Below, piece after piece: positions 37,928 through 53,358 of a stretch of DNA of 64,000 nucleotides. The stretch lies in assembly GCA_015061365.1 (NCBI GenBank), contig SUWS01000002.1:22806-86805 (forward strand), read 5' to 3'. The stretch is from Lentimicrobiaceae bacterium. GTDB taxonomy: Bacteria > Bacteroidota > Bacteroidia > Bacteroidales > F082. The number at the start of each line of letters is the position of its first letter. The stretch's first letter is position 1. The position numbers and the translations under genes are program-made. The notes below the pieces were generated by a model. That model was not told the DNA's origin. It searched no databases and worked only from the letters and a program-made list of their open reading frames with translations.

Positions 37928-38123
37928 TGTTTCATGTTATTAATTGAAGAAGATGGTTGCAGCTCACGCAATCATTTTCTTTTTTTGTCTGATCGGATTA
38001 AAGTTTAATGCTTAAGGTTTAAGGTTGTGAGATGATGATCGTATTTGGCAGATCGTTGTTTGGATAACTAAAGCCATTAAGTTAAAATTATGTGGATAAA
38101 GTTGGCATTCAAATAAGTTATAT

Positions 38124-39092
38124 ATGAAAAACGTAATAGGAATAGGAAGTGCATTGGTTGATATATTGACTCGTATCGATAATGATGACATACTTAAAGA
38201 GTTAGATATCCGCAAGGGTTCGATGCATCTTGTTGATGAGAAATCGACTGCAATAATTGAAAAGAGATTAGAGAATTATGAAAGTTCGATGGCTCCTGGC
38301 GGATCTGCTGCAAATACGATTCATGCTTTGTCGAAAATGGGTATCGAAAGCGGATTCATTTCTTTTATTGGGAAAGATGAAATTGGAAAGTTCTTTGAGA
38401 ATTCAATGAGCTCCGTAGGAGTGAAATCGTATCTTTTTCATACAGACACTGCTTCGGGTACGGCTCGCACAATTATTTCGGCGGATGGAGAACGTACCTT
38501 CGCTACAAACCTCGGCGCATCTCTCGAACTTAATGAAAGGGTAATTACATCCGATATATTTAAACAGTGGGACTATTGTTATGTTGAAGGTTATCTCATC
38601 GCAAATAAACCTGTATTCGTAAAAACCATCTCTACAGCAAAGGCTTGTGGCTGTAAGGTGGTTCTTGACCTCGCAAGTTTTAATGTTGTTGAAGAGAATC
38701 GTGATTTCTTGAATGAGCTGCTTCCGCAAATCGATATTATATTTGCAAATGAAGAAGAAGCTAAGGCTTTGACATTGATGAGCGCGGAAGAATCGTTACA
38801 TTATATAGCGGAAAAAGTGGAAATAGCAGTCGTTAAAGTCGGTAAGAATGGCTCGCTCATAAAAAGAGGAAATGAAGTCGTTCAAATTGGATGTAATAAG
38901 ATTGACGTTGTGGATACGACGGGAGCCGGTGATATGTATGCCGCAGGATTTCTCTATGGACTTATCAATGATTATGATTTGGAAAGTTGCGGAATTATAG
39001 GAAACCACTTGGCTGAAAGCATTATTCAGGTCATAGGAGCAAAGATGGATGAGGAACGTTGGGAGATGTTTAAGAAGAATTTGAGAAATTGA
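38124..39092 (+). CDS. PfkB-family carbohydrate/adenosine kinase
   Basis: GGSAANT... and the C-terminal DTTGAGDMYAAGFLYG motif. Confidence 0.85.
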   Translation: MKNVIGIGSALVDILTRIDNDDILKELDIRKGSMHLVDEKSTAIIEKRLENYESSMAPGGSAANTIHALSKMGIESGFISFIGKDEIGKFFENSMSSVGVKSYLFHTDTASGTARTIISADGERTFATNLGASLELNERVITSDIFKQWDYCYVEGYLIANKPVFVKTISTAKACGCKVVLDLASFNVVEENRDFLNELLPQIDIIFANEEEAKALTLMSAEESLHYIAEKVEIAVVKVGKNGSLIKRGNEVVQIGCNKIDVVDTTGAGDMYAAGFLYGLINDYDLESCGIIGNHLAESIIQVIGAKMDEERWEMFKKNLRN

Positions 39093-39249
39093 AAATCTGA
39101 AAATCTGAGAATCTGAAAACTTGAGAAATTGAGGATTTCTTCAGCTCGGGATTATTACTCAGACTCGTAGTTTATCAGGTTCTCAGTTTATAAATTCAAA
39201 CTTCTCATATTTTACTAAAAAATGTATTGCATTATTTAATTGAAATATG

Positions 39250-39257
39250 TATCTTTG
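39250..39257 (+). promoter_or_regulatory. -7 box TAtcTTTG upstream of the EF-G paralogue
   Basis: Exact TAnnTTTG about 80 nt upstream of ATG 39339. Confidence 0.6.
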
Positions 39258-39338
39258 CACTCCAAATTGGAAGAGTATACTTAGGGCGCGATAATTCACG
39301 TCCTTACGATTTAACAAAGAATTAATTTTAAAATAAAC

Positions 39339-41474
39339 ATGAAGATATTCCAGACAGAAGACATTCGGAACGTCGCTCTCATAGGAGCTGCTAAATCCGG
39401 TAAGACAACGCTTGCTGAAAACATGGTTTTCGAAGGTAAGCTCATCAACAGAAAAGGCACTACAGAAGGTAAAAACACAGTATCTGACTATCGTCCAATA
39501 GAAACAGAACGCGGTATATCTGTAAACGCCAGTTTGTTATACACAATCTATAACGACAAGAAAATAAATATTTTAGATACTCCAGGTTTTAGCGACTTCT
39601 CAGGCGACATCGTTGCTTGTTTGACAGCTGCTGATATGGCTGTTTTCACAGTCAACGCTCAAGCAGGTGTTGAAGCAACAACAGAAAATGCATGGAAATA
39701 CGCTACAAAAACAAACAAACCTGTAGTGTTCTTCATGAACCAATTGGATCACAGCAACGCTAATTTCGATGACACAGTACGTCAATTGAAAGAATATTTC
39801 GGCGATAAAGTTACTCCAGTTCAATTCCCAGTAGCAACAGGTGAAGGTTTCAACTCAGTCATCGACCTTATTACAATGAAGATGTTAGTCTTCAAGAATG
39901 GTAACGGTGCTCCTGAAGTACAAGACATTCCTGCTAACTTAGCAGACAAAGCTGAGGAATTACACAACGAACTCATCGAACACGCAGCTGAAGGTGACGA
40001 TGCTCTTATGGAGAAATTCTTCGAAGAAGGTACACTTTCAGAAGAAGACATGGAAAAAGGTCTCCACCTCGGTATCATCAACCGTGATATGTTCCCAGTA
40101 TTGTGTGGTGCAGCTAAATCAGGTGCCGGTGTTACACGTCTCTTAGAATTCCTTATCAACGCTTGTCCTTCACCAGCTCACGTACATACTACAAAAGCTG
40201 TAAACGGTACAGAATTCCATAACAGCACAGAAGAAGCTCCAGCAATGTTCTTCTTCAAGATCTCTAACGAACAAAACGTTGGTGACGTCGCTATGGCTCG
40301 TATCTACGGTGGTACAATCGCTGAATCACAAGATATGGTTAACCCACGTACAGGCAACAAAGAACGTATTTCTCAACTTTTGGTTTCAAACGGTAAGACA
40401 CGTGAGAGAGTTGAAAAAGCCTGCGCTGGTGATATCATCTCTACAATCAAATTGAAAGACGTTCGCGTCAACGACAGCTTGGTAGATGCTAAGATCTCTG
40501 ACACAGCATTCGAAGGCGTTCCATTCCCAGCTCCAATTTTCTCTACAGCTATCAAAGCCGTTAACTCACAAGAAGACGAAAAACTCGGCGGTATCCTCGC
40601 TGACTTCCATAAGATCGACCCAACAGTCATCACTTCAATGTCACGTGAGTTAAGACAAAATATCCTTCAATGTCAAGGTGAATATCACCTCAATACAATC
40701 AAATGGTATCTCGATAACGTACATAAAATCGCTGTTGAATTTGCAGCTCCTAAGGTTCCTTATCGCGAAACTATCACCAAGACAGCTAACGCTGACTACC
40801 GTCACAAGAAACAATCAGGTGGTTCAGGTCAGTTCGGTGAAGTCCACATGAGATTAGCTCCTTATTATGAAGGTTACACAGATCCATCAGACCTCCAAGT
40901 TCGTGGTAAAGATGAATACGATCTCCCATGGGGCGGTAAACTCATCTTCTGCAACTGTATCGTCGGTGGTTCTATCGATGCTCGTTTCATGCCAGCTATC
41001 TTGAAAGGTATCAACGAACGTTTGGAAGAAGGTCCTCTTACAGGTTCATACGCTCGCGACATCATCTGCTACATCTATGATGGTAAGATGCACCCAGTTG
41101 ACTCAAACGAAATGGCATTTAAGATCGCAGGTCGTATGGCATTCTCAGCAGCATTTAAAAACGCTGGTCCTAAGATCATGGAACCTATCTACGACTTGAC
41201 AGTTCGTATGCCAGAAGATATGATGGGCGCTGTTAACACCGACCTCCAAAGCCGTCGTGCTATCATCATGGGTATGGATGCTGACCGCAACTACCAAATC
41301 ATCCGCGCAAGAGTCCCATTGGCAGAAATGGACAGATATTCAACTTCATTGAGTTCTTTGACATCAGGCCGTGGTACATTCACAATGGAATATGCAGAAT
41401 ACGCACAAGTTCCAACTGACGTTCAAACAAAACTCTTGAAAGCTTACGAAGAAAGCAAGAAAGACGAAGATTGA
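39339..41474 (+). CDS. Elongation factor G paralogue (EF-G2-like)
   Basis: 711 aa with full EF-G domain order. G1 reads GAAKSGKTT and switch II reads DTPGFSDF (no His). Confidence 0.9.
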   Translation: MKIFQTEDIRNVALIGAAKSGKTTLAENMVFEGKLINRKGTTEGKNTVSDYRPIETERGISVNASLLYTIYNDKKINILDTPGFSDFSGDIVACLTAADMAVFTVNAQAGVEATTENAWKYATKTNKPVVFFMNQLDHSNANFDDTVRQLKEYFGDKVTPVQFPVATGEGFNSVIDLITMKMLVFKNGNGAPEVQDIPANLADKAEELHNELIEHAAEGDDALMEKFFEEGTLSEEDMEKGLHLGIINRDMFPVLCGAAKSGAGVTRLLEFLINACPSPAHVHTTKAVNGTEFHNSTEEAPAMFFFKISNEQNVGDVAMARIYGGTIAESQDMVNPRTGNKERISQLLVSNGKTRERVEKACAGDIISTIKLKDVRVNDSLVDAKISDTAFEGVPFPAPIFSTAIKAVNSQEDEKLGGILADFHKIDPTVITSMSRELRQNILQCQGEYHLNTIKWYLDNVHKIAVEFAAPKVPYRETITKTANADYRHKKQSGGSGQFGEVHMRLAPYYEGYTDPSDLQVRGKDEYDLPWGGKLIFCNCIVGGSIDARFMPAILKGINERLEEGPLTGSYARDIICYIYDGKMHPVDSNEMAFKIAGRMAFSAAFKNAGPKIMEPIYDLTVRMPEDMMGAVNTDLQSRRAIIMGMDADRNYQIIRARVPLAEMDRYSTSLSSLTSGRGTFTMEYAEYAQVPTDVQTKLLKAYEESKKDED

Positions 41475-41497
41475 TAAAATCTCCACTAAATACGAAG

Positions 41498-41530
41498 ACT
41501 CCCGCGAAGAAATTCACGGGAGTTTTTTTT
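41498..41530 (+). terminator. Rho-independent terminator
   Basis: actcccg-(12 nt)-cgggagt followed by eight T. Confidence 0.85.
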
Positions 41531-41610
41531 GTCCACTAATTGGCATGAATTTGCGCTAATATTATTAAAAAAGGTATTTTCTGAAAATTCAACGTAATAA
41601 AAATAAATGT

Positions 41611-42528
41611 ATGAATATGTCAGAAAATAGAAAAAAGAAAAGCACATTCTTTGTGTTTATGGAAGATGTCTATGTAAATTTAAAAGCATTAGGAAAAATC
41701 AGGACATCTGAGACCTACAAATCGTCATTGGATAGCTTCAGAAAGTTTAGAAAAGGTAAAGACTTGACCTTCAATAAATTTAATCATGAGATGATGATTG
41801 AATATGAAGCATATCTTAAAGCAAAAGGAATTTCAAAAAACACGTCTTCTTTTTATATGCGAACGTTGCGTGCTGTATACAACAGAGCCGTAAACAAAGG
41901 TCTCACTCTTCAGAAATATCCGTTCAAATATGTCTATACCGGCATTGACAAAACACGGAAAAGAGCAGTCTCGGTTCAGATAATGAAGCAGATTAAAAGT
42001 CTGGATTTATCATCGGAATGGAAATTAGATTTTGCGAAAGATATGTTTCTGTTTTCATTTTACACGAGAGGAATGTCATTTGTCGACATGTCATATCTTC
42101 GTAGAAAAGATTTAAGCAATGGAATATTGACCTACCGACGGCACAAGACAGGACAGCTGCTACATATAAAATGGGAAGCCTGTATGCAGGAAATTGTCAA
42201 TAAATATAAAAACGAGCAATCTACATTTCTATTACCTATTATTAATACTGATGAAGTAGAAGAGCAACGCAAGCAATATATTTATTCTGCGCATAATATT
42301 AATAGGTGTCTAAAGAAGATTGGAGCAATGTTAGGCTTATCGTTGCCATTAACGATGTATGTTGCCCGGCACACATGGGCAAGTATTGCAAAACAAAAGA
42401 ATATCCCGTTATCAGTCATCAGCGATGGGTTAGGCCATGACTCAGAATTAACAACGAGAATCTATTTGTCTTCATTGGATAATGTAGAGATAGATAAGGC
42501 TAACAGAATGATTCTTAATCTTTTATAA
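41611..42528 (+). CDS. Tyrosine site-specific recombinase (Bacteroides small integrase/invertase type)
   Basis: 305 aa. SAM-like N-terminal domain, ARHTWASIA (R-H) and LGHDSELTTRIYL (H...Y) catalytic motifs. Confidence 0.9.
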   Translation: MNMSENRKKKSTFFVFMEDVYVNLKALGKIRTSETYKSSLDSFRKFRKGKDLTFNKFNHEMMIEYEAYLKAKGISKNTSSFYMRTLRAVYNRAVNKGLTLQKYPFKYVYTGIDKTRKRAVSVQIMKQIKSLDLSSEWKLDFAKDMFLFSFYTRGMSFVDMSYLRRKDLSNGILTYRRHKTGQLLHIKWEACMQEIVNKYKNEQSTFLLPIINTDEVEEQRKQYIYSAHNINRCLKKIGAMLGLSLPLTMYVARHTWASIAKQKNIPLSVISDGLGHDSELTTRIYLSSLDNVEIDKANRMILNLL

Positions 42529-42541
42529 GCTCTTATCTGTA

Positions 42542-42701
42542 ACATCTCTTCCCAAGAGATTTATAACTACTTGCAAAGTAAATAAAAATATTGATATAAA
42601 ATACATTATATATAAAATTTTTTTTCTGACACTTTTTAACTAATCTTAAAGACCTGATTTTCAATAATATAACTTCAAAATATTCTCTTGGGAAGAGATG
42701 T
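42542..42701. promoter_or_regulatory. Candidate invertible DNA segment: perfect 18-bp inverted repeats flanking 124 bp
   Basis: acatctcttcccaagaga (42542-42559) and tctcttgggaagagatgt (42684-42701) are exact reverse complements. The left repeat starts 14 nt after the recombinase stop and the right repeat ends 94 nt before ATG 42796. Confidence 0.5.
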
Positions 42702-42795
42702 ACTCGGGAAATGCATTAATTTTTTATTAAATATTATTTGATTTCTCTATCATAGCCCAAAATAAATTAAACAAACTCTACTAAAATAAAATAAT

Positions 42796-43593
42796 ATGAA
42801 ATTAATAATTCCAAACGGATGTTTAGCAGCAGAAAATGATGCTGCTGCAAAAATCAGAGCAAGTCTCGCTAAAGATCTTAAAGATGGTAAACCTGTAGAA
42901 ATTGCTTCTTCAGGAGATGTCATGGGACAAAATGGTGAACAAAAGAAACTTGAAATCCAACCTGGCAAATTGGCAGCAGAAAATGATGCGGCTGCACGAA
43001 TACGAGCAAGTCTCGCTAAAGATCTTAAAGACGGTAAACCTGTAGAAATTGCTTCTTCAGGAGATGTTATGGGACAAAATGGTGAACAAAAGAAACTTGA
43101 AATTCAACCTGGTAAATTGGCAAACTATCAATGGTATGAAAGAGAGCCTCAAAGACTCCGAGGTGAAATTGAAGGAATGAATGAGTTCTTTCCTCAATTT
43201 AAATTGTATAAAATGAATGACGGACGATATTATTGGAGAGGAACTTTGCGTCCAAATGTTTTGCCTAATGGTTGGGCTTGGGAAGTTGCTGCAATTTACA
43301 ATAATGACCACCCAGCGCCACAAATGGGAGGTTCGGTGCGTGTAGTTCTTTTAAATCCTGATATTGATACAGTGATCAATGCATTGGGATGGAGACCTCA
43401 TCATCTTTTATATTGTCCTACAGATGGTACATATCTTTGTACAACACGCGCACAAGATATGAGTTATGGTACTCAATACGAAACTACAGCTGTTCAAACT
43501 TTAACTTGGGCAGTTAAATGGTTAACTGCTCTTGAGTTGGTATTGACTGGTGATTTATCTAAAGAATTGTTTAATAATCCTGTTGGAATATAA
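42796..43593 (+). CDS. Two tandem 49-aa modules fused to an E2/UBC-like domain (tentative)
   Basis: The C-terminal 155 aa show an E2-like order: a helix (QRLRGEIEGMNEFF), YYWRGTL, EVAAIYNNDHPAPQ...VRVVLLNP, then PHHLLYCPTDGTYLC (HPN-like position plus a G-x-Y-L-C candidate catalytic Cys), then a helix (TLTWAVKWLTALE). Confidence 0.5.
   Translation: MKLIIPNGCLAAENDAAAKIRASLAKDLKDGKPVEIASSGDVMGQNGEQKKLEIQPGKLAAENDAAARIRASLAKDLKDGKPVEIASSGDVMGQNGEQKKLEIQPGKLANYQWYEREPQRLRGEIEGMNEFFPQFKLYKMNDGRYYWRGTLRPNVLPNGWAWEVAAIYNNDHPAPQMGGSVRVVLLNPDIDTVINALGWRPHHLLYCPTDGTYLCTTRAQDMSYGTQYETTAVQTLTWAVKWLTALELVLTGDLSKELFNNPVGI
42826..43119 (+). repeat. Tandem in-frame duplication, 2 x 147 bp
   Basis: Units 42826-42972 and 42973-43119 differ at only a handful of positions. 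Each encodes AAENDAAA(K/R)IRASLAKDLKDGKPVEIASSGDVMGQNGEQKKLEIQPGKL. Confidence 0.95.
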
Positions 43594-43601
43594 GTTGTGT
43601 T

Positions 43602-44303
43602 ATGATTTCACACGTAGTTTTTACCAAAAGAGCATTTAATGCAATTGTTACAGAGACAATAGATAAGAATCCTGTAGAAACTGGCGGTATCTTTATAGGA
43701 TATTTGCTAAATAATGGGATTGCCATAGTTGTAGAAACAATTCCCCCAGGCATTAGAACAATAAATCAACGTGCATATTTCGAATATGATGCTGATTTTG
43801 TCAATTACCTATCTAACGTTATTGCAAAACAATATGTAGGCAACCTTCATGTATTAGGATTATGGCACCGCCATCCAGGAAGTATGGATACATTCTCAAT
43901 GACAGATAATGGAACCAATATCAAGTTCGCCGTAAACAATGGAAATTACGGAGCTATATCTGCATTGGTAAATTGTGACCCTAAATTGCGATTAACAATG
44001 TATCATGTTAATCCAGATTGTACTTATACACCTATTGAATGGAGTGTCGATGACGGTATAATTCCAGAAGATCTATTAAAACTTCATTATGAAGATGCGT
44101 CAAATCTTCCAATTTTAGGTGAGCACTCTTATAATATGAGTCCAGCTACCTCTGTATCACCCAACAACAATAACAGCGGTAGTGAGCATATTGTGGATTC
44201 TATTTGTGAATCTCCAGAAACAGGATCTAGCAAATATACAATTGCAGATGCAATAGATGACTTTTCTAAAATAATTCGCAAACTCATTAATAATGCAAAT
44301 TGA
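43602..44303 (+). CDS. JAB/MPN (JAMM) metallopeptidase
   Basis: NPVETGGIFIGY (Glu) plus GLWHRHPGSMDTFSMTD, an exact H-x-H-x7-S-x2-D JAMM motif. Confidence 0.85.
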   Translation: MISHVVFTKRAFNAIVTETIDKNPVETGGIFIGYLLNNGIAIVVETIPPGIRTINQRAYFEYDADFVNYLSNVIAKQYVGNLHVLGLWHRHPGSMDTFSMTDNGTNIKFAVNNGNYGAISALVNCDPKLRLTMYHVNPDCTYTPIEWSVDDGIIPEDLLKLHYEDASNLPILGEHSYNMSPATSVSPNNNNSGSEHIVDSICESPETGSSKYTIADAIDDFSKIIRKLINNAN

Positions 44304-44395
44304 GTAGTCTTTCTATACTAATTTATCATAATAACATTTCCGATATAGATTTAAGTAAAATGGAATTAGTTTACAAACTATAATACTTGTCAAAT

Positions 44396-45829
44396 ATGAA
44401 TTCACACATTATAGAATCTGCAAACTTGTATTTAAAAACAAAGCCAGAAGGCAAAATTATTTTCCCTTCACAAATTTATGAAGAAAAATACATCGGTCCA
44501 CTCAATGGCTATTATGTTCCCGAAACAAATATTTTTAATGTCATTCCTACAGATACTCTTCATATAAATAATGGAAAGTGTTCATTGTTAGGATTCATAT
44601 TACCATTAAATCCTCTAAGATATATTGAAGAGAAAACGCCAGAAAAAGATCCCCTTTCAATAATTAAAGAAAAAATGGGATTAAGCAATGAACATAAAAA
44701 AACATTAACAATACAACCATCAAAACCAATTCCTTTTGATGGAGATGGAATAGCTATTAACAATGACATTTCATTAAGCATCAAAGAAAAATTCATCCCA
44801 GAATTAATACGATTATTAAAATACGAAAGTTTTTTAATTGATTCAATACAAGAATGGGTGGAATATATATTTAAATCAAGGGAAGAAGACTTACTATTAG
44901 GATATTGGGAAGATAATCGCATATACTTTCATCATATAAAATGGCATTTTATAAATAAATACATAAATCCAACTCCATTGATACAAGAAACTTATTCTTT
45001 AAAATTAGATGTATTTTCACGGAATACTGGTATTCTTGAGTCTGATATAATGCTAACTAAAGGTGCTGTATTTATTGGATGTGGTTCCGTGGGTAGTTTA
45101 TTTGCTTTAGAATTGGCTCGTGCTGGTGTTGGTCGCTTTATGCTGATAGATAGCGATATTTTAGGATATCATAATATTTGCAGACATCAGTGTGGAATAT
45201 TTGATGTTGGTAGATATAAAACAGATGCAGTAAAAGATAGAATCCTGCAAATAAATCCTTATGCAGAAGTTGTTACGTATAATATGAGAATTCAAGAAGT
45301 TCCATTAGATGATTTGATGAAATTTTGTGATGTAAATACTATTGTTATTGGTGGAGCTGATAATCGAGAAGGTGATTTGTATGCTAATAGCATTGCACAA
45401 CATGTGGGTATGCCATTTATGTCTATTGGATGTTGGGAAAGAGCATTTGCTGGTGAAATATTTTATTGTTTGCCTACAGGTATGCCAACATATAAAGATT
45501 TCATGGAAGTTACAGGACATATGTCTGCACGAGTGACTCAAAATAGAAGATTTTACACAACTGAAGCAGAGCTTGAAAAAGTATCTTTTGAACCAGGTAT
45601 ATCAGTAGATATAAATTTTGTTACAACTATTGCTGTAAAACTAGCCATTGATTTGCTCAATAGAGATAATGAAAATTATACCCAAAGGTTATTACCTCAT
45701 TTGACACAATATACATTGGTATGCAATACGAATAACACAAAAGTCGGAGGAGAAATGGCAGAGATATTCTCTTATCCATTGCAGGTAACTACAAGTATTA
45801 TTGTACCATACTCAAATAAGGAAGAATAA
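44396..45829 (+). CDS. E1-like ThiF/MoeB-family adenylyltransferase with an unknown N-terminal region of about 215 aa
   Basis: FIGCGSVGSLFALELARAGVGRFMLIDSDILGYHNICRHQ and GGADNREGDLYAN match the Rossmann GxGxxG, D.D...N..R and DN..R motifs of ThiF. ATG at 44396 preferred to TTG 44387. Confidence 0.85.
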   Translation: MNSHIIESANLYLKTKPEGKIIFPSQIYEEKYIGPLNGYYVPETNIFNVIPTDTLHINNGKCSLLGFILPLNPLRYIEEKTPEKDPLSIIKEKMGLSNEHKKTLTIQPSKPIPFDGDGIAINNDISLSIKEKFIPELIRLLKYESFLIDSIQEWVEYIFKSREEDLLLGYWEDNRIYFHHIKWHFINKYINPTPLIQETYSLKLDVFSRNTGILESDIMLTKGAVFIGCGSVGSLFALELARAGVGRFMLIDSDILGYHNICRHQCGIFDVGRYKTDAVKDRILQINPYAEVVTYNMRIQEVPLDDLMKFCDVNTIVIGGADNREGDLYANSIAQHVGMPFMSIGCWERAFAGEIFYCLPTGMPTYKDFMEVTGHMSARVTQNRRFYTTEAELEKVSFEPGISVDINFVTTIAVKLAIDLLNRDNENYTQRLLPHLTQYTLVCNTNNTKVGGEMAEIFSYPLQVTTSIIVPYSNKEE

Positions 45830-45830
45830 T

Positions 45831-46472
45831 ATGGCTGAATTTGATCAATATGGGCGTCTAAAAAATCCGAATTTTCGCCAGTCTCGTCCTGTTTCTAGCT
45901 TTGTACCATCAGCAACATATAGCAGAGAATCTGGGTGGCAAAGATTCAATGGCTTTATAAGTGATATAGGGCAATGGTTAAGAGACAATTGCAGTGCTCT
46001 AGCTAACAATATATCAATTGGAGGATTTTTTATTGCATGTATAGCAATTATAATAGGAGCCATCTATACATGGATTGATGATGGTTTTGTGGAATTTATT
46101 ATATATGCTATTGTCGCAGCTCTTGTTATGTATTTTGGAGGTTTGTTAGTAACAGGATTAATGATGATAGTATTAAACATCCCAATATACATATTGGGGA
46201 TTATATTTCATAGTGCATATTCTCTGATAATAACAATACTATTAGCATTAGGTATAATAATATATTGTAATTATGATAACAATAGTTATTCATCTTCTCA
46301 TAATAAGTATACACCTATAGCAGAAGAAACTGTCAAAACAAATACAGAAAATACACCTGCTACCACCCAATATGTATGTACTGCAAAATCAACGTTGAAC
46401 GTACGTAGATCTCCTGATATTAATTCACAAGGATTAACAGAGGTTTTTTCGGGTCTTTATTCGACAAATTAA
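45831..46472 (+). CDS. Small membrane protein (about 4 TM) with a low-complexity tail
   Basis: The ATG lies 2 nt after the E1-like stop. Hydrophobic stretches FFIACIAIIIGAIY, IIYAIVAALVMYFGGLLVTGLMMIVL, ILGIIFHSAYSLIITILLALGIIIY. Confidence 0.55.
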   Translation: MAEFDQYGRLKNPNFRQSRPVSSFVPSATYSRESGWQRFNGFISDIGQWLRDNCSALANNISIGGFFIACIAIIIGAIYTWIDDGFVEFIIYAIVAALVMYFGGLLVTGLMMIVLNIPIYILGIIFHSAYSLIITILLALGIIIYCNYDNNSYSSSHNKYTPIAEETVKTNTENTPATTQYVCTAKSTLNVRRSPDINSQGLTEVFSGLYSTN

Positions 46473-46507
46473 GAAATCTATTTGGGTAAAATTAAGGAGA
46501 AATAATC

Positions 46508-46903
46508 ATGGACTTAGGAATAATAGGAATAATTATCGCTATTGTAATAGTTGTAATAATTGTAATATCATTAAGAGCCTTACGCGAAAAGTATGTGTGG
46601 ATGGATGGTGTTGTAGCTTTTATTATGATTGGAGCAGTTATAGCAGGTTGGATTATTGGTGGATTTTGGATGGGTGTAGCGACATTTATTGGTTCATTAT
46701 TGGTTATAGGTTTATTATTCGGTTTAGGAAATGATTATACTGAGGTCCGGATAGATGTTCATACTACAGCTAAGATTAAATGCCCTCAGTGTAACTATGG
46801 CGGAATGGATATAATTTCTAGTAGATATGATTCAGAGCAAAAAGTTACAAGTATAGATGCTAAGTGTAAACGTTGTGGTAAAGTAACTAATTTTATAGGT
46901 TAA
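46508..46903 (+). CDS. Small membrane protein (about 3 TM) with a C-terminal CxxC...CxxC zinc ribbon, ending in Gly
   Basis: GIIGIIIAIVIVVIIVI, VVAFIMIGAVIAGWIIGGFWMGVATFIGSLLVIGLLFGL, then KCPQCNYGG...KCKRCGKVTNFIG*. Confidence 0.55.
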   Translation: MDLGIIGIIIAIVIVVIIVISLRALREKYVWMDGVVAFIMIGAVIAGWIIGGFWMGVATFIGSLLVIGLLFGLGNDYTEVRIDVHTTAKIKCPQCNYGGMDIISSRYDSEQKVTSIDAKCKRCGKVTNFIG

Positions 46904-46934
46904 TAAATTATAGTTTAATTTTAATATAGTAATC

Positions 46935-48101
46935 ATGCAGAAAATGTGTTTTGTGATGTTAACATATAAATGCAACCTCAATTGCATCTATTGTTATCAA
47001 AAGTATAAAACTTCACAAAGAATGACTTTAGAAACAGCCAAGTCTGTGGTTTCAAGGGAAGTTCAGTTAGCCAGAGAGTCTAATAATAAGGATGGTGTAA
47101 GATTTGACCTATTTGGTGGTGAGCCATTGCTTCAATTTAATCTGATTAAAGAATTATGTGCTTGGATATGGGAGACTATTACAGATGTGAAAGTTGATAT
47201 TTACATAACAACCAATGGAACACTGCTTGATGATGAGAAAAAAGAATGGTTTAAGTCTCATAAAGAAAGAATCAATCTTATTATGTCTGTCGATGGCAAA
47301 GATGATGTACAAGTAGGTAATAGAGGCTGTCAGCTCTCCGATTTACCTATAAAGTGGGTAATAGACACATTGCCAAATTATCTGTTAAGTATGACTATTT
47401 CGAGAAAATCTCTTGCGAATTTTGCAGATGATCTCATATATTTTCATGAACAGAATTATAGCATAGATGCAAAACCAGCCCAAGGTGAAGATTGGCGGGA
47501 CGGAGACGGTCAAATATATGAAAATCAATTGTATAAACTATCAGATTATTATTTGGCACACCCTGAGATAAGACCAATGTACATCTTCAAGGAAAGCTCA
47601 TATGTTCATTTGCTTAACAATGAGCCAAACGAAAAATATGGCAAAACATGCGGTGTCGCAGAAGATCTTGTAGCTTATGATGTAGAAGGTCGATTGTTTC
47701 CTTGTCATCATTTTCTGCCTAATGTAAACGGTAAAACCGATATACTGGATTATCTGAACAAGCTTGATTTCTCTGATTCATCAAAATTTGTTGATGAGGA
47801 ATGTATAAAGTGTGATATATTGAAACTTTGCAGGACCTGTTCTGCTCGCAATTTCAATGAAAGAGGAGATGTTAGTCGGAGGGATAAACGAGCCTGTCAA
47901 ATAATGCTTGCTGAAGCTAAAGTAGTAAGCCAGTTCCAAATTAAGAAACTGATGCAAAATAAAGATAACTTAAGTGCACACGATTTATTGAACCTAAAGG
48001 CCGCTATCAAGTGTCAACAGCTCTGTAGTGACTTTGAGAAGAAATTTTGTGCACATAAAAAACAAAATGGAGAAGCCGATAGCCATAAAGTGGAGGCATA
48101 A
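46935..48101 (+). CDS. Radical SAM enzyme with a SPASM/twitch C-terminal domain (anSME-like peptide maturase)
   Basis: YKCNLNCIYCY (CxxxCxxC). C-terminal CGVAEDLVAYDVEGRLFPC (C...G-x4-C) and CIKCDILKLCRTC (CxxCx5CxxC). Confidence 0.85.
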   Translation: MQKMCFVMLTYKCNLNCIYCYQKYKTSQRMTLETAKSVVSREVQLARESNNKDGVRFDLFGGEPLLQFNLIKELCAWIWETITDVKVDIYITTNGTLLDDEKKEWFKSHKERINLIMSVDGKDDVQVGNRGCQLSDLPIKWVIDTLPNYLLSMTISRKSLANFADDLIYFHEQNYSIDAKPAQGEDWRDGDGQIYENQLYKLSDYYLAHPEIRPMYIFKESSYVHLLNNEPNEKYGKTCGVAEDLVAYDVEGRLFPCHHFLPNVNGKTDILDYLNKLDFSDSSKFVDEECIKCDILKLCRTCSARNFNERGDVSRRDKRACQIMLAEAKVVSQFQIKKLMQNKDNLSAHDLLNLKAAIKCQQLCSDFEKKFCAHKKQNGEADSHKVEA

Positions 48102-48120
48102 TTTATTAATACATTTCATT

Positions 48121-48249
48121 ATGTTAAACAATGAATTGCTTATGGAAGCTGCCGCATTGGTAAACTCAAATGAGGCAAAGATCGCTCAACTTCAAGCTGA
48201 TGTTGAATGCGCATCTGGTTGTGGAATATGTGGTTACGGTAGTAACTAA
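48121..48249 (+). CDS. Candidate RiPP precursor peptide (42 aa)
   Basis: MLNNELLMEAAALVNSNEAKIAQLQADVECASGCGICGYGSN has a helical leader-like N-terminus and a Cys/Gly-rich C-terminal 13 aa. It starts 19 nt after the SPASM enzyme stop. It is the internal ATG of track ORF 48028..48249. Confidence 0.5.
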   Translation: MLNNELLMEAAALVNSNEAKIAQLQADVECASGCGICGYGSN

Positions 48250-48264
48250 TATTCTTTAAACACT

Positions 48265-48299
48265 GTAGGCTGACTAAAAATACTTTTTGGTCAGCCTAC
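48265..48299 (+). promoter_or_regulatory. Perfect 10-bp stem-loop directly after the precursor ORF
   Basis: gtaggctgac-(15 nt)-gtcagcctac with no T-tract after it. Possibly a partial terminator or an mRNA stabiliser. Confidence 0.45.
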
Positions 48300-48332
48300 T
48301 CATTTATCAAGGAAATTGAATATATTGACTTT

Positions 48333-50132
48333 ATGCTAAATTCAAACAACTCACAAGAAAACAAGAAAGTAGATGCATTACTTGTTCAATTATCTGCAAA
48401 TCCATATTTTGACATGCTTTCATCGTATAGCATAGGACAATTAGGATTATATTATTTAGCCGAATATGCAGATAGATTTGGTTGCCTTGTAAAGGTTAAG
48501 TATTACAATTCATTTGATGAAGTCTCAATGTTACTTCCTGAATTAATACGAAATACATCTTGTCGTATTATAGGATTTTATGTAGATAGTGATAATATTT
48601 GGTCATTAAGAGCATTAATGCCCAAATTATATCAATGTTGTCCCAATATTAACATCATTATAGGTGGGCCTCAGGTAACAGGTGACCCACATGGAACTAT
48701 GCAATTAATTCCCAATGTTACTTGCGGTGTTATCGGGGAAGGTGAAGTTCCATTTCTTAAACTATTACAATCAGATACACTTAATGAAGATGTGTTAAAT
48801 TGTATTGATGGTCTGATTTATAATTCCACTAATGGATTAATAACAACAAAACCTCAAAAACAAGATCCAAATATTGATGAATTCGGTTATCCTAAAAGAG
48901 AAAAATATTGCTTAGATCCAAACAAAGTAACATTCTCACAATTAATAACAGGAAGAGGTTGTATGGGACAATGCGCATTCTGTTACGAAGGCGGAAAAGA
49001 ACATACTAACTTACGTGTACGCAACGTAGATTCTTGTTTAGAGGAAATTGATTATTTAGTAGATACTTACGGAGTTAAGTATATTAATATAGTGGATGAC
49101 ACATTCATTTTAAATAGGAAACGAACGGAGGAGTTTTGTAATAGATTGATCAATAAATATAATGGTAGTATTAAATGGTACTGTGAAGCAAGAGCTGATA
49201 TATTGTCTAAAAACATTGATATTCTGCCATTATTAAAAAAAGCAGGATTAGTTAAAATACAATTAGGAGGCGAGTCTGGATGCCAAGAAATTTTAGATGC
49301 ATACAAAAAAGGGGTAACTATAAAGCAATTAGAGTTTGTTACACAAAAGATAGTAGATGCAGGTATTCCATATATCTATGCCAACTTCATAATAGGTGGA
49401 GCATTTGAGACAGAATCAACTTTTAACCGGACATTAAACTTCGCTAAAAAACTAATGCGTACCGCACCTGGTCACGTTGAAGTTAGTTCATCGGTCTTTA
49501 CTCCAACACCAGGTTCTCCAATGTATAATAATCCAGAAGAGTATGGTTTGAAGATAATAGATAAGAGAAGCATAAGAGGAGCTAATTGTTCTTTTGTATT
49601 TGCAGAAACCGAACAACTGAATCAGTATAAGATTTGGCAATTACGTAATAGATTTAACAATGAAATAAAAAATGAATACGCTTCATTATTAGATGATATA
49701 TCACTTGAACAGTTAAAAAATATATTCTATCTATCAACAAAATTCTCTATAGACACACCATGGTCAAATCTGCTAAAAAGTAAGGCACATTATAGAAATT
49801 ATATAGAACCTTTAGTAAGAGGCGGCTTCTATTCTTTTAGCGAAATACCTATCGACAATATATTTTCTGCTATTCCTTTAAGAACCACTCATCTAAGTTC
49901 TGATGGAGTAGCATTTTATAGGATTAAACGGTCAGGTGAATATGTAAAAAACAGTAATTTAGAAAATGCTCTGATCACATTATCCGCAGGAAAATTAACA
50001 TTCTTGGATATTTTTAATATGATAAAATCTAATCCTGCTTTTATTACAAGTAGGACCGATATACTTGATGAATGCCTATCTATATATAGAGAATTTGAAC
50101 GTGAATTTTCTGTTGTATGGAAAAAAATTTAA
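48333..50132 (+). CDS. B12-binding-domain radical SAM enzyme (class B type)
   Basis: N-terminal Rossmann-like B12-domain region, then ITGRGCMGQCAFCYEG (CxxxCxxC). Confidence 0.8.
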   Translation: MLNSNNSQENKKVDALLVQLSANPYFDMLSSYSIGQLGLYYLAEYADRFGCLVKVKYYNSFDEVSMLLPELIRNTSCRIIGFYVDSDNIWSLRALMPKLYQCCPNINIIIGGPQVTGDPHGTMQLIPNVTCGVIGEGEVPFLKLLQSDTLNEDVLNCIDGLIYNSTNGLITTKPQKQDPNIDEFGYPKREKYCLDPNKVTFSQLITGRGCMGQCAFCYEGGKEHTNLRVRNVDSCLEEIDYLVDTYGVKYINIVDDTFILNRKRTEEFCNRLINKYNGSIKWYCEARADILSKNIDILPLLKKAGLVKIQLGGESGCQEILDAYKKGVTIKQLEFVTQKIVDAGIPYIYANFIIGGAFETESTFNRTLNFAKKLMRTAPGHVEVSSSVFTPTPGSPMYNNPEEYGLKIIDKRSIRGANCSFVFAETEQLNQYKIWQLRNRFNNEIKNEYASLLDDISLEQLKNIFYLSTKFSIDTPWSNLLKSKAHYRNYIEPLVRGGFYSFSEIPIDNIFSAIPLRTTHLSSDGVAFYRIKRSGEYVKNSNLENALITLSAGKLTFLDIFNMIKSNPAFITSRTDILDECLSIYREFEREFSVVWKKI

Positions 50133-51077
50133 ATGTTAAAACACATTATTAAACTAATGCAATATACAGACACTTTACATATAGTTAAAGATACTCTTTT
50201 GGATGAGGAGCATCTCAGGATGATACAAGAGTTTACACAAAAAACAGCTTCCAACACAGCTTTTAGTTTTTGGCGTGAAGCAGATTTCTGGGAGTATTTG
50301 GCAATAGGTCTATCATTTTTAGCGATCGTGTTAGCTGTTGTTACTGCAATCTTACAATGGAAAACTGAAAGAAATACAAGAATGTCTTTAAGTATGAAAA
50401 ACCAAGTTTATGAATCTATATTCAAGTTATTACTCAATGATCTTTATAGAATACAATGTGATATTTTATCACTGCAAATTATTTTAATAGAAAATGATTT
50501 TCAATCATATCCGACAAAACGATATCTAAAAAAAATGATGATTAAATTTGATGATTCTAATCTTGATTCTTTTTTAGTTGTCTTTAATAAAGAAGATAAA
50601 GGCGAAGCTGAAGAGCATTATCTTAAAATGAGGGAAATCAATAGGTTAATTCATAATTATAATGTTAACCTTGAAATATTAATGGAACATTTAAAAGACT
50701 CATCAGTAGATACAAGCACCAAATTATTTGATTTCTCAATCATAAATAATAATATATGTTTTCTAAGTAAAAAGATAATTCAAACTGCTGAATCTATTTA
50801 TGGAAAGAATTCTGATGTTGGTACTTCTCTGCTGCATTATGTAAAAAAAGCTTTAGAATTTTATCAATCAAGTGAGACTAATATAACCTCTATAGATAGT
50901 TATACAAACCTAAAAAAATACGAAGATATTATCAATCCAGTTCTTAACAACTATTTCGAATATACCAATACCATATCTACAAATGAAGCAATGTTATTGG
51001 CATATAGACTAATATCAAACGAAATAGACAAGAACGATTCTGATGTAAAAAACAACTTAATAAGGTTTAAGACATAA
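50133..51077 (+). CDS. Hypothetical single-pass membrane protein, helical
   Basis: The ATG abuts the upstream stop. One TM (FWEYLAIGLSFLAIVLAVVTAILQW). No recognisable motif. Confidence 0.45.
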   Translation: MLKHIIKLMQYTDTLHIVKDTLLDEEHLRMIQEFTQKTASNTAFSFWREADFWEYLAIGLSFLAIVLAVVTAILQWKTERNTRMSLSMKNQVYESIFKLLLNDLYRIQCDILSLQIILIENDFQSYPTKRYLKKMMIKFDDSNLDSFLVVFNKEDKGEAEEHYLKMREINRLIHNYNVNLEILMEHLKDSSVDTSTKLFDFSIINNNICFLSKKIIQTAESIYGKNSDVGTSLLHYVKKALEFYQSSETNITSIDSYTNLKKYEDIINPVLNNYFEYTNTISTNEAMLLAYRLISNEIDKNDSDVKNNLIRFKT

Positions 51078-51148
51078 TCATCAAAATATCTTAAAATCAG
51101 ATGATAAAGTTCTAATGAAATTTTCAGTTTAATGTAAAAAGAATCAAT

Positions 51149-52213
51149 ATGGACGTAAATTTTTTAAATAAAATTTTGAACACTCATAGTGTTTCTGGAT
51201 TTGAAGACAAAACTGGCAAGCTATTTATAGATTATATTACACCTTATGTTGATTCCGCTTATACCGATATTATGGGGAATTGCTATGCTAATATCGGCTA
51301 TGTACCAGAAGACAATTTATTTCCGAAAATTCTGATAGAGGCTCATATTGATGAAATAGGATTTCAGGTTATATATATTGATGATAATGGATTTATATAT
51401 ATTCGTAAGAATGGAGGAGTGGATATACAATGTATTCCTGGTTCACAGGTAATTATACAAACATTATCGGGCGAAGAACTATTCGGAATTATTGGTAAGA
51501 AACCTATACATTTGACTGCGCCAGAAGATAGAAACAAAAATATTGAATTACATTCTTTATGGATTGATACAGGATTATCCCCCGATGAGGTAAAGAAAAA
51601 GATTTCCATTGGAGATGTTGTAGCTTGGAAATCTAACATGATGTACTTATCAGATAAAAGAATCTCATCTAAAGCTTTAGATGATAAAGTTGGAGTATAT
51701 ATAATAAGTCAGGTCTTGAAAAAATTATCAATAAATAAAATTTGTAATGCTCAAGTATGCGGTGTCGCTTCTGTTCAAGAGGAAGTTGGTCATCGAGGAG
51801 CGATGGTATGTTGTCACAAATTAAATCCAGATATAGCAATTAGTATAGATGTTGACTTTGCAACTGATGTCCCTGACTGTCCTAAAACAAAATTTGGAGA
51901 TATTTCATTAGGTAATGGCGTTGTAATTCATAAAAGTATTGACAATACTAAATCTATTACATTATTAGCTGAAAAAATCGCAAAAGAGAATAATATAAAA
52001 TATCAAATTTCTGCACGACCAACTTCTGTAGGAGGCACCAATGCTGCAGTTTTACAACAAACACAAAATGGTATAAGAACAATAAGTTTAGGAATACCTT
52101 GTAGGTATATGCATACACCTGTTGAATTATGCGACTTAGATGATATAAAAGATGCTATTGAGTTGTTATATCATATGATTATAAACATAATTCATGTAAC
52201 CAAAATTGATTAG
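51149..52213 (+). CDS. M42 family metallo-aminopeptidase
   Basis: IEAHIDEIGF, SKALDDKVGV, QEEVGHRGA and the DVDFATD pattern of M42 (FrvX/PepA-like). Confidence 0.85.
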   Translation: MDVNFLNKILNTHSVSGFEDKTGKLFIDYITPYVDSAYTDIMGNCYANIGYVPEDNLFPKILIEAHIDEIGFQVIYIDDNGFIYIRKNGGVDIQCIPGSQVIIQTLSGEELFGIIGKKPIHLTAPEDRNKNIELHSLWIDTGLSPDEVKKKISIGDVVAWKSNMMYLSDKRISSKALDDKVGVYIISQVLKKLSINKICNAQVCGVASVQEEVGHRGAMVCCHKLNPDIAISIDVDFATDVPDCPKTKFGDISLGNGVVIHKSIDNTKSITLLAEKIAKENNIKYQISARPTSVGGTNAAVLQQTQNGIRTISLGIPCRYMHTPVELCDLDDIKDAIELLYHMIINIIHVTKID

Positions 52214-52308
52214 TATTTATATAAAAAGCAATATTATCTTTCCCTCACCCTATCACCCCACTGCCCAGCACCACCGGTTCTGTCTCGTGATAGATGATGT
52301 TAGCATTA

Positions 52309-53343
52309 TTACAATTCAAGACTGTCCGTATTTAAAAGAAAATCTATGACACTTATGTAAAGTACACCTTGCTCATTGAACCAAGGTTTTGTCGCTGTCC
52401 GCTGAATGACAATCTTTCTGAAAGAATCATCTATATTGCGAAAAGATTGTAATTCTTGCTTCATTTTTTCTTCATCGGATATTTCATATGCCGATTGTAT
52501 GTAATAACGCTTATCACCCTTATTAGCTATGAAATCCACCTCTAATTGTTTCTTCACATATTTGTCGTCTTTCTTTTCATTTACGATAACAACACCAACA
52601 TCAACGCTATATCTTCTTCTTAAAAGCTCGTTATAGATAATATTTCCCATAATGTGATTCTCTTCCTGCTGACGGAAATTGAGTCGGGCATTACGCAAGC
52701 CAACATCAACGAAATAATATTTCATTGGAGTTCCTATATACTTACGACCCTTGACATCGAATCTGTGAGCTCGTTCAATTAAAAAGGAATCAACGAGATA
52801 GTCGATATATGACGAGATGGTGAACTGCGAAAGCTTCATATTATTTGACGATTGAAATGTATTTGCCAAACGCTGAGGATTGGTGAGAGAGCCAATAGAC
52901 GACGCCAAGACATTTGTCAGAACTCCAATCTCCTCACGACCTTTCAGCTTATATTGATTTATTATGTCGGAAAGATAAACCTGCTCAAACAAGTTTCTAA
53001 GATACGACTCTCTTTCATCGTCAAAGTCCATGCTCCAAATCAATGGCATCCCTCCGTAACGACAATACAATGTCCATAATTTTTCCTTGTCTATATCTGA
53101 GATACTACAAACCTCAGAAAAACTGAAAGGATATACTCTTATCTCATCGCCTCTGCCTCTGAATTCTGTTATTATGTCGCTCGAGAGAAACTTTGAATTG
53201 CTACCCGTAACATAAACATCCACATTTGACAAATGCAAAAAACCATTCAACACAGGAACAAAATCCTCAACCAACTGAATCTCATCTAAAAGAATGTAAT
53301 ACTTCCCGTCATCGGTAATTCTGTTTTTGACGTAATTATACAA
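52309..53343 (-). pseudogene. 5'-truncated AAA_14/DUF4143-type ATPase
   Basis: Begins at ...LYNYVKNRITDDGKYYILLDEIQ (Walker B). The Walker A part, about 75 aa, is absent. The open frame runs back only to the stop codon of the adjacent ROK gene. Confidence 0.65.
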
Positions 53344-53358
53344 CTCGTCGGGATTTTT

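Follow-up and report, generated by a model that had tools for sequence, protein, structure and literature searches.

The DNA analyzed here, a window of 64,000 nucleotides (nt) on contig SUWS01000002.1 of a Lentimicrobiaceae bacterium, contains at 42796–46472 four co-directional genes that encode an E2-like (UBC-like) protein, a JAB/JAMM metallopeptidase, an E1-like adenylyltransferase, and a protein with four transmembrane (TM) helices, termed TM1. Together they probably constitute a complete, phase-variable operon for ubiquitination-like conjugation, in which the modifier would be encoded as two tandem units of 49 amino acids (aa) on the N-terminus of the E2. The anatomy of the operon is solid, and the assignment of the modifier, as read from sequences, is well supported by comparative evidence. 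Bacterial E1/E2 conjugation families worked out since 2022 number three, namely type II CBASS, Bil, and Bub. A literature search recovered known E1/E2 families and none matching this architecture, in keeping with the view of an earlier note on this DNA that it is undescribed; many subscription papers lay outside the search, and an earlier description is possible. All coordinates are positions in the window, related loci that were compared are designated L0xx, and the class labels A, B, and C are our own.

The earlier note had recognized an E2-like/JAMM/E1-like triad in the order BilB-BilC-BilD, with neither a free-standing ubiquitin-like protein (Ubl) gene nor a CD-NTase. The triad proved to be intact, its three identities are borne out by PADLOC, Pfam, and fold matches, and the layout of open reading frames (ORFs) confirms the gene order. 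Likewise, no nucleotidyltransferase, CD-NTase, or Ubl was detected by Pfam, PADLOC, or NCBIfam among the ORFs of 41.6–52.2 kb, and the intergenic gaps of the 42796–46903 block are too small for an additional gene. The statement that a separate Ubl gene is missing therefore stands; what the note overlooked is a modifier that is probably present after all, fused in tandem to the E2.

Tandem units on the E2

Each of the two units in the window's pre-protein ends with Q-P-G-K-L-A, such that the junctions fall at G57-K-L-A60 and G106-K-L-A109, and Tandem Repeats Finder resolved the underlying DNA into 2.0 copies of period 147 with 94% matches. Among the fetched loci, every class A or class B E2 carries one to five N-terminal copies of a 45–50-aa unit with the consensus KLAADDDAAKKIRKELAKKLREGKPIEIGSSGDVTGKEGQTKLVIQPG, and each copy is bounded by the junction consensus K-[LI]-x-[ITV]-[QP]-P-G-K-L-A. 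Across 68 sequences, G106, K107, L108, and A109 are each at least 90% conserved. The lengths of 80 E2 homologs cluster at about 170, 218, 265, 315, and 376 aa, consistent with one to five unit copies, and the shortest of these homologs are likely fragments. In the AlphaFold2 model of the pre-protein, the last unit–E2 junction is a low-confidence, exposed linker directly before the first E2 helix.

The number of units varies among near-identical strains. The window has two copies and L001 has one, at 99% identity, and the same two-to-one difference was observed between L015 and L014 and between L011 and L012. Moreover, units inside one protein have a median identity of 96%, as opposed to 47% for units across proteins and 56% for the E2 domain across proteins. 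This disparity between within-protein and between-protein identity reflects concerted evolution of the kind known from polyubiquitin.

The unit also occurs apart from the tandem fusion. A profile of it was searched against 1.84 billion representative proteins, and about 12 of the 100 matches were free-standing proteins of 60–83 aa, consisting of a short leader and one unit and ending in G-K-L-A plus zero to three residues; the end falls exactly at the Ala in 8 of 13 free-standing unit proteins. In the class C loci L053/L054 and L055/L056, a free unit gene with a genuine TAA or TAG stop lies 14–32 nt before a repeat-less E2-CBASS gene, and the resulting order of free unit gene, E2-CBASS (155–165 aa, beginning ...SFYWYE), JAB, and ThiF E1 is that of BilA-BilB-BilC-BilD. 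In other proteins, units are fused via G-K-L-A to unrelated C-terminal parts, including a TM anchor (P0227) and zinc fingers (P0250, P0280), an arrangement that is reminiscent of ubiquitin fusion proteins.

Zinc modules recur nearby. In L055 (7205–7987), a TM protein with a B-box/RING-like finger is encoded shortly before the free unit gene, the fingers fused to units in P0250 and P0280 are of the DnaJ or ribbon type, and a zinc ribbon is present in TM2, the second small membrane protein of the window (46508–46903). Every one of these matches is weak, and the small zinc-binding modules near the operons might be E3-like. Other genes were inspected as possible Ubls. In L004 this was a 138-aa gene inserted between those for JAB and E1, and in L025 and L028 it was the additional E2-like genes; none has Ubl likeness.

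The E2, JAB, and E1 enzymes

Residues 121–250 of the pre-protein match the PADLOC CBASS "E2" profile PDLC00877 (E = 1.8e-10), and precomputed matches to PF26395 (E2-CBASS) exist on homologs of the window E2. Searches of the PDB by sequence, with either the single sequence or a profile, returned no meaningful match for the window E2, and the local Pfam library gave zero matches. The structural model is more telling: in the AlphaFold2 model of the pre-protein (68 sequences), residues 110–265 have a confidence score (pLDDT) above 90, and 49 of the 50 best PDB fold matches are UBC/E2 enzymes, in agreement with the fold that had been proposed for the C-terminal domain. The scores themselves are weak, with UFC1 (9gll) at the top (E = 0.036, probability 0.93) and target TM-scores of 0.4–0.57, partly because the disordered N-terminus was included in the model.

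The segment proposed in the earlier note as the HPN-Cys region of the E2 does contain a catalytic Cys candidate, C215 (YLCTTR; nt 43438–43440), which all 68 of 68 aligned sequences retain. Of the two Cys residues in the segment, C215 comes second; the other, C206, is unconserved and is Asp in most homologs. In the same alignment, P201 and H203 of a P201-H-H203 loop are nearly invariant. The E2 terminates in N-x-P-x-G-I (43573–43593 in the window), a sequence that is conserved up to the last residue in 120 unique sequences. Conservation to the last residue is unusual for a UBC domain, and the motif could be a second processing or docking site.

The JAB protein was matched by Pfam Prok-JAB (5e-7) and by PADLOC JAB (2.8e-13), and a sequence comparison with the PDB gave no match. 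NCBIfam matches to Cap3 (5e-6 for the JAB protein) and cap2_3 are below the family cut-offs. The H-x-H-x7-S-x2-D motif and upstream Glu that had been read from the sequence are represented by H89, H91, S99, D102, and E26, and all five residues are conserved in 36 of 36 sequences.

The ThiF/E1-like identity of the third protein was affirmed by a Pfam ThiF match at 8.7e-25, and its best PDB fold match is Cap2 (7to3_A, E = 9.8e-14 over 474 columns), followed by Uba5, MccB, and BubCD. From its N-terminus, the protein comprises a small beta-rich domain (aa 20–69), a disordered linker (81–115), a region of two helices and a four-strand meander (123–200), and the ThiF Rossmann domain from about aa 216. 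The N-terminal region, with its helix and four-strand meander, contains no Cys. GCGSVG (228–233), R263, and D322 are invariant, and Cys 346, 358, and 443 are among the conserved residues.

Modifier or docking module

The simplest interpretation of these comparisons, and in our view one that is more likely right than wrong, is that the unit is the modifier of the E2/JAB/E1/TM1 family, with the window making a two-copy precursor on its E2. A number of observations weigh against this assignment. First, AlphaFold2 renders the unit as a helix plus hairpin with pLDDT of only 35–67, and its length of about 48 aa does not suffice for a beta-grasp fold. Second, no similarity was detected between the unit and PDB chains, or between the unit and ubiquitin or ThiS, for which approximate query sequences were used, and a beta-grasp assignment is therefore unsupported. 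Third, the Pro before the Gly and the conserved K-L-A tail are unlike known Ubl tails. Fourth, further proteins of class B operons begin with the N-terminal half of the unit (leader, helix, and first strand, without G-K-L-A), among them proteins of 331 aa in L041 and 281 aa in L042 and a TM protein of L031, so that a shared docking module would be at least as fitting as a released tag. The unit may accordingly be a docking motif, instead of or besides a modifier. Fifth, the catalytic Cys of the E1 has two candidates, C358 (32 of 36 sequences) and C443 (36 of 36), and neither can be assigned with confidence. Sixth, the TM1 of the window has been deprived of its SH3 domain, and the window's copy may be impaired as a result. 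Finally, the cleavage and conjugation of the modifier, its target, and its biological role are matters that we infer.

Several of these points would be accommodated by a CBASS-like alternative, which we regard as doubtful, albeit worthy of attention. Here there would be no dedicated modifier; the E1 and E2 would activate the C-terminus of another protein, such as the E2's own N-x-P-x-G-I tail, TM1, or a protein encoded elsewhere, and the N-terminal repeats would serve as docking or avidity modules. It is consistent with Cap2 being the closest E1 fold, with the match of the E2 to CBASS E2 profiles, with the conservation of the E2 C-terminus to its final residue, with the predicted flexibility of the units, and with the half-unit heading several unrelated class B proteins in the manner of a shared targeting motif. 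What it does not readily explain is that free unit genes ending in G-K-L-A occupy the position of BilA, that fusions of units to unrelated domains always occur via one junction, and that repeat homogenization and copy-number change resemble those of polyubiquitin. In addition, the C-termini of TM1 homologs are unconserved, ending in Ile, Tyr, or Glu, and TM1 was rejected as an E1 substrate for this reason. The dedicated 49-aa modifier is retained as the preferred reading.

A proposed conjugation pathway

If the units are modifiers, a pathway can be envisioned as follows. The recombinase upstream would flip a 124-bp element and thereby turn a promoter toward the operon; relatives show inversion of the orthologous element, and the activity of the promoter is presumed. 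The JAB would then cut the pre-protein at the P-x-G-K-L-A junctions to yield free units and a free E2 domain, with the cut falling either after the Ala, where the free-standing homolog ends, or after the Gly, as in BubAB. Next, the E1 would adenylate the new C-terminus of a unit and hand it to Cys215 of the E2, probably via a conserved Cys, and the E2 would attach the unit to an amine of a target. That target is probably at the membrane, because the four-TM protein is the fixed fourth gene, and because one sister group has TM helices joined to its JAB and two have their triads within secretion-like FtsK/WXG100 clusters. It is conceivable that the JAB could also reverse the conjugation. As for the biological role, control of the envelope or of secretion and anti-phage tagging, as in Bil, are both candidates.

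Distribution and classes of related operons

A search with the E1 retrieved 2131 proteins at E ≤ 1e-5, a figure that may include other ThiF-type proteins; among the best 120 of these, all score at least 520 bits. Scanning one genome per species gave 33 loci, nearly all in Bacteroidota, including Paludibacteraceae, Muribaculaceae, Bacteroides congonensis, Dysgonomonas, Prevotellaceae, Alistipes, Alloprevotella, Marinilabiliaceae, Crocinitomicaceae, and Lentimicrobiaceae, together with two Lachnospiraceae metagenome-assembled genomes. The neighbors of these 33 loci were compared with the proteins of the window and of L039. The order of E2, JAB, E1, and four-TM protein is a conserved feature of a mostly Bacteroidota family. 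Synteny assigns the window itself to a Paludibacteraceae-like genome of the Bacteroidales.

Three classes can be distinguished. Class A, to which the window belongs, has a soluble JAB, an E1 of 413–494 aa with an N-terminal insertion, and a four-TM protein after the E1 that often ends in an SH3_3 domain. In class B, the JAB is fused to four TM helices, the E1 is about 373 aa, and a DUF4234 membrane protein and GYF-domain proteins are encoded downstream. Upstream of the triad, ten class B loci encode an FtsK/SpoIIIE ATPase of 1000–1270 aa with GYF domains and two helical W-x-D proteins of about 90 aa, whose match to WXG100 is weak (E = 0.003); L052, also of class B, adds a bPH-like and an Hsp70-like protein. 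In class C, the E1 gene is followed by genes for a 78-aa W-x-D-S-K protein, an FtsK/SpoIIIE ATPase, and more WXG-like proteins; a Gln_amidase toxin domain is encoded in L055 as well. All told, genes of the FtsK/SpoIIIE and WXG100 type were found near the triad in L030–L043, L052, L053, and L055. The operons of class B (L030–L043, L052), class C (L053–L056), and L046 are large and co-directional and include many small TM proteins; they are found in Bacteroidota and in two of the Lachnospiraceae metagenome-assembled genomes.

The context that informs most about the operon lies beyond the window, in sister operons inside FtsK/SpoIIIE and WXG100-like clusters; when the proteins of L039 were compared with all window ORFs, only the E2, JAB, and E1 were matched. 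The class B and class C operons have the look of a type VII-like apparatus, hitherto undescribed, into which a conjugation system has been built. A broader proposition, which we advance tentatively, is that these loci represent a new ubiquitination-like family with a modifier of about 48 aa that is probably not of the beta-grasp fold and is variously tandem on the E2, fused elsewhere, or free. The family would have originated in an FtsK/WXG100 apparatus, akin to type VII secretion, of Bacteroidota and some Firmicutes, in which tagging would control secretion or the envelope, rather than or besides defense against phages. Genes for TIR/TPR proteins, type I restriction-modification, or Fic proteins are close to some relatives.

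Membrane proteins and a swappable radical-SAM cassette

The earlier note had described two small membrane proteins as attached to the triad, with gaps of 1 and 35 nt ahead of their genes. The gaps were confirmed (those between successive genes from E2 to TM2 are 8, 92, 1, and 35 nt), and the two proteins have turned out to belong to different modules. TM1 has four TM helices and an N-terminal F-D-x-Y-G-R that is invariant in homologs. Those homologs, of 147–259 aa, are encoded directly after the E1 in most class A relatives, and many carry a PF08239 SH3_3 domain; TM1 is a conserved partner of the triad. TM2 has only 12 homologue clusters. In L057, it is encoded directly behind the recombinase and switch and is followed by radical S-adenosylmethionine (rSAM), precursor, B12-rSAM, and M42 genes, with no E2, JAB, E1, or TM1 present. 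This stretch of L057 is 97.5% identical to 46661–53355 of the window and occupies the same chromosomal locus, indicating that TM2 belongs to a cassette for a ribosomally synthesized and post-translationally modified peptide (RiPP) and that the triad plus TM1 is a separable module. TM2 was on these grounds rejected as a component of the triad.

The DUF4234 protein that follows the class B E1 was considered as a possible homolog of TM1, and an hhalign probability of 0.5% leaves the two as positional equivalents only. The motif I-N-E-[FY]-G-E-I-[IV]-R occurs at the N-terminus of class B DUF4234 membrane proteins and at the C-terminus of small GYF proteins (L039 13756–14619 and relatives), and the start of TM1, M-A-E-F-D-Q-Y-G-R (45831–45860), is similar to it; the motif is present twice in L024. 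Such sequences may be docking peptides.

Homology between the window and five contigs (L001, L002, L003, L015, L016) stops at 46303 and resumes at 52239–52249. The boundary at 46303 lies inside the TM1 gene, before the SH3 domain, which accounts for the loss of most of the C-terminal SH3_3 domain in the window. Between the same breakpoints, L001, L014, and L016 carry four rSAM genes; the cargo of L015 and L048 comprises an FGE-sulfatase-like gene together with genes for a TonB-dependent receptor and an SbmA-type transporter. The stretch 46304–52238 is a hot spot of cassette exchange, with at least three cargoes in near-identical backbones. The RiPP cluster that occupies it in the window is probably of the ranthipeptide type, and a strong hairpin with a 16-bp stem follows the precursor gene at 48265–48299.

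It had also been noted that the triad continues into the rSAM module. Downstream rSAM clusters do recur in six to seven of the roughly 16 lineages of class A, where their precursors are of at least four unrelated kinds, and the cassette is swappable rather than fixed. This recurrence raises the possibility that the triad serves the downstream RiPP pathway, with the E1 adenylating the precursor as MccB does its peptide and with the E2, the JAB, and the TM protein aiding maturation, export, or immunity. In support of such a role, the window's precursor ends in Asn, as MccA does; MccB ranked first when the E1 profile was compared with PDB sequences (1.7e-10); no terminator-like hairpin was predicted between TM1 and the cassette; and rSAM clusters lie downstream in the window, L001/L014/L016/L029, L004–7, L022, and L051, with the clusters of the distant L022 and L051 likewise ending with an M42 peptidase. 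A direct biosynthetic role is nonetheless quite unlikely, given that the cassette exists at the same locus without the triad in L057, that rSAM genes are absent from more than half of the class A lineages and from all class B and class C loci, that cassettes are exchanged at fixed breakpoints behind an otherwise identical triad, and that the fold of the E1 is nearer to Cap2 than to MccB.

Signs of recent exchange rather than decay

Between the window (38122–46303) and L001, the E2, JAB, E1, and TM1 genes are 99% identical, whereas the neighboring PfkB and EF-G genes are 87% identical. This difference indicates recent lateral exchange, and it seems that homologous recombination has lately transferred the module from one related species to another.

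These data also bear on the suggestion that the locus might be a mere decayed Bil or type II CBASS, rendered non-functional after the loss of a Ubl or CD-NTase. In favor of this suggestion, neither gene is present, and TM1 is truncated in the window. Against this, the gene set recurs across many Bacteroidota families with all catalytic residues intact; no CD-NTase or beta-grasp Ubl adjoins the triad in the fetched relatives with Pfam-annotated neighbors; and a triad that is 99% identical between strains whose EF-G differs by 13% is indicative of recent spread, not decay. We consider decay to be very improbable, and the suggestion is contradicted by the conservation of the family.

An invertible switch upstream

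The recombinase and candidate DNA switch that had been placed upstream of the triad are both upheld (Table 1). The recombinase, which is presumed to be the invertase of the adjacent switch, is found at the equivalent position in L001–L003, L014–L016, L029, L048, L057, and L058. Between the recombinase and E2 genes, a perfect 18-bp inverted repeat flanks 124 bp. In the orthologous element, the inner 111 bp of L015 (~3040–3210) are the exact reverse complement of those in L014 (~6460–6630), L016, and L029, which derive from different metagenome assemblies. The occurrence of both orientations is direct evidence of inversion. Among the sequences of the window's own type (window, L001–L003), a single orientation was seen. 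The exact Bacteroides promoter motif TAnnTTTG was not found in the window switch; a relaxed Bacteroides -7-like motif (TTACTTTG) occurs at 42581 of the minus strand, directed at present away from the operon, and on this slender basis the switch may be in the OFF orientation in the window.

A further layer of regulation is suggested by genes for NusG/UpxY-like antiterminators that precede the operon in L028 (2597–3202), L051 (8071–8820), and L052 (480–1067), as they do in Bacteroides capsule loci. Their location upstream suggests that transcription of the long operons is subject to processive antitermination.

Layout of the locus

The features of the region are collected in Table 1. The block is more A+T-rich than the upstream EF-G gene, as had been claimed, with a G+C content of 0.29–0.37 compared to 0.42–0.44. 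Beyond the cassette, the AAA_14/DUF4143 gene encodes 344 aa in the window and 417 aa in L015 and L057; homology to these two loci ends at 53355, so the gene has been deprived of its 5′ end by further rearrangement.

Table 1. Features of the conjugation operon and its surroundings in the window.
Feature	Position	Strand	Remarks
Tyrosine recombinase	41611–42528	+	Pfam Phage_int_SAM_5 (2.8e-20), Phage_integrase (6.3e-8)
Invertible DNA element	42542–42701		18-bp perfect inverted repeats (42542–42559, 42684–42701) around 124 bp
E2 pre-protein, 265 aa	42796–43593	+	11-aa leader, two 49-aa candidate modifier units, E2 (UBC-like) domain
Two tandem 147-bp repeats (candidate modifier units)	42829–43122	+	Residues 12–60 and 61–109
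E2/UBC-like domain	43123–43593	+	Residues 110–265; PADLOC E2 match, fold matches, invariant columns
JAB/JAMM metallopeptidase, 233 aa	43602–44303	+	E26, H89, H91, S99, D102; low-complexity C-terminal tail
E1-like adenylyltransferase, 477 aa	44396–45829	+	ThiF domain; alternative TTG start at 44387
TM1, four-TM protein, 213 aa	45831–46472	+	Homologs directly after E1; N-terminal motif MAEFDQYGR
Variable cassette	46304–52238	+	Homology to L001, L002, L003, L015, and L016 interrupted across the stretch
TM2, TM helices and zinc ribbon, 131 aa	46508–46903	+	Cassette member
rSAM/SPASM maturase, PapB-like	46935–48101	+	Cassette member; Pfam/NCBIfam family match
RiPP precursor peptide, 42 aa, Cys-rich	48121–48249	+	Sequence MLNNELLMEAAALVNSNEAKIAQLQADVECASGCGICGYGSN; end ...ECASGCGICGYGSN
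B12-rSAM	48333–50132	+	Cassette member
314-aa protein without assigned function	50133–51077	+	Cassette member
M42 aminopeptidase	51149–52213	+	Last cassette gene
AAA_14/DUF4143 gene, 344 aa	52309–53355	-	

Significance

If the proposed modifier is genuine, the operon would represent a fourth family of bacterial E1/E2 conjugation systems. A tag that is minimal, repeated, and apparently not of the ubiquitin fold would inform what an E1/E2 cascade requires of its modifier, and it would bear on the origin of polyubiquitin-style precursors. Moreover, through its ties with membrane proteins and FtsK/WXG100 clusters, the system would link protein tagging to a secretion-like apparatus of the Gram-negative Bacteroidota that is still poorly understood. 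Finally, Bacteroidales of the gut and rumen commonly carry the family, which is phase-variable and resides beside swappable RiPP cassettes, and it is tempting to suggest that it may affect strain-level competition in the microbiome.

Comparison with known systems

Type I Bub (formerly 6E.1 / DUF6527) consists of BubAB (Ubl-E2), BubCD (JAB-E1), and BubE, and the JAB domain encoded in the operon cuts the Ubl-E2 fusion BubAB directly behind a conserved Gly (bioRxiv 10.1101/2024.11.21.623953). This cleavage is an experimental precedent for a unit–E2 fusion acting as a precursor. The window shares with Type I Bub a putative modifier N-terminal to the E2 and a conserved Gly at the junction, and processing by the operon's JAB is proposed here by analogy; the mature end of BubA is at the Gly. 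The two differ in that the window's JAB and E1 are separate proteins and not a BubCD fusion, in that the window's E2 has the invariant C215 where BubB has Ser, and in that the window lacks BubE, with a Pfam scan giving no DUF6527 match among its proteins, and has the four-TM protein as its fixed fourth gene.

With Bil, the window has in common separate genes for a Cys-type E2, a JAB, and an E1 in the order BilB-BilC-BilD, and L053 and L055 share in addition a small gene ahead of these, in the position of BilA. In contrast to Bil, there is no beta-grasp BilA in the window, the candidate tag being fused to the E2, and the system is linked to membrane proteins; of the two, only Bil has a known role in phage defense.

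Likeness to type II CBASS resides in the E1 fold, which is nearest to that of Cap2, in the matches of the E2 and JAB to CBASS profiles, and in the presence of a Cap3-type JAB. Unlike type II CBASS, however, the window has no CD-NTase, and likewise neither a cyclase nor an MBL (compare the related Pycsar and 6A-MBL systems). Its E2 and E1 are unfused, with the JAB between them, whereas Cap2 is a single E2-E1 polypeptide, and the part of substrate, which falls to the C-terminus of a signaling enzyme in type II CBASS, would be taken by a small unit dedicated to it.

Eukaryotic polyubiquitin and ubiquitin fusions offer parallels in their head-to-tail repeats, homogenized by concerted evolution and variable in copy number, and in fusions via one conserved junction with a dedicated peptidase, here encoded alongside. 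They differ from the units in having L-R-G-G in place of P-x-G-K-L-A at the junction; the two have no sequence or demonstrated fold relation, and processing of the units is a proposal.

The sister groups, as opposed to the window, also share features with type VII (ESX/Ess) secretion, namely an FtsK/SpoIIIE ATPase, pairs of W-x-D proteins of about 90 aa, a bPH-like protein, and Gln_amidase (L055). None of those genes is in the window, and the sister-group match to WXG100 is the weak one given above. The known Ubls of type VII secretion (YukD/EsaB and the N-domain of EccD) are unconjugated and come without E1, E2, or JAB. Solo WXG and YueA-like ATPase genes of Bacteroidetes have been described as "mobile versions of T7SS", with no conjugation genes (Zhang et al. 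2012, PMC3482391).

The switch has its counterpart in the invertible promoters of Bacteroidales, with which it shares a recombinase, short inverted repeats around a segment of about 110–125 bp, a long co-directional operon downstream, and, in L028, L051, and L052, NusG/UpxY-like genes upstream. It differs in lacking an exact TAnnTTTG and in its cargo, which is a conjugation module with RiPP cassettes and not a capsule or fimbrial locus.

The module thus lacks one or more defining features of each of Bil, type II CBASS, and Type I Bub, and it is nearest to Type I Bub in the build of its precursor, to Bil in its gene order and Cys-type E2, and to Cap2/Cap3 in the fold of its E1.

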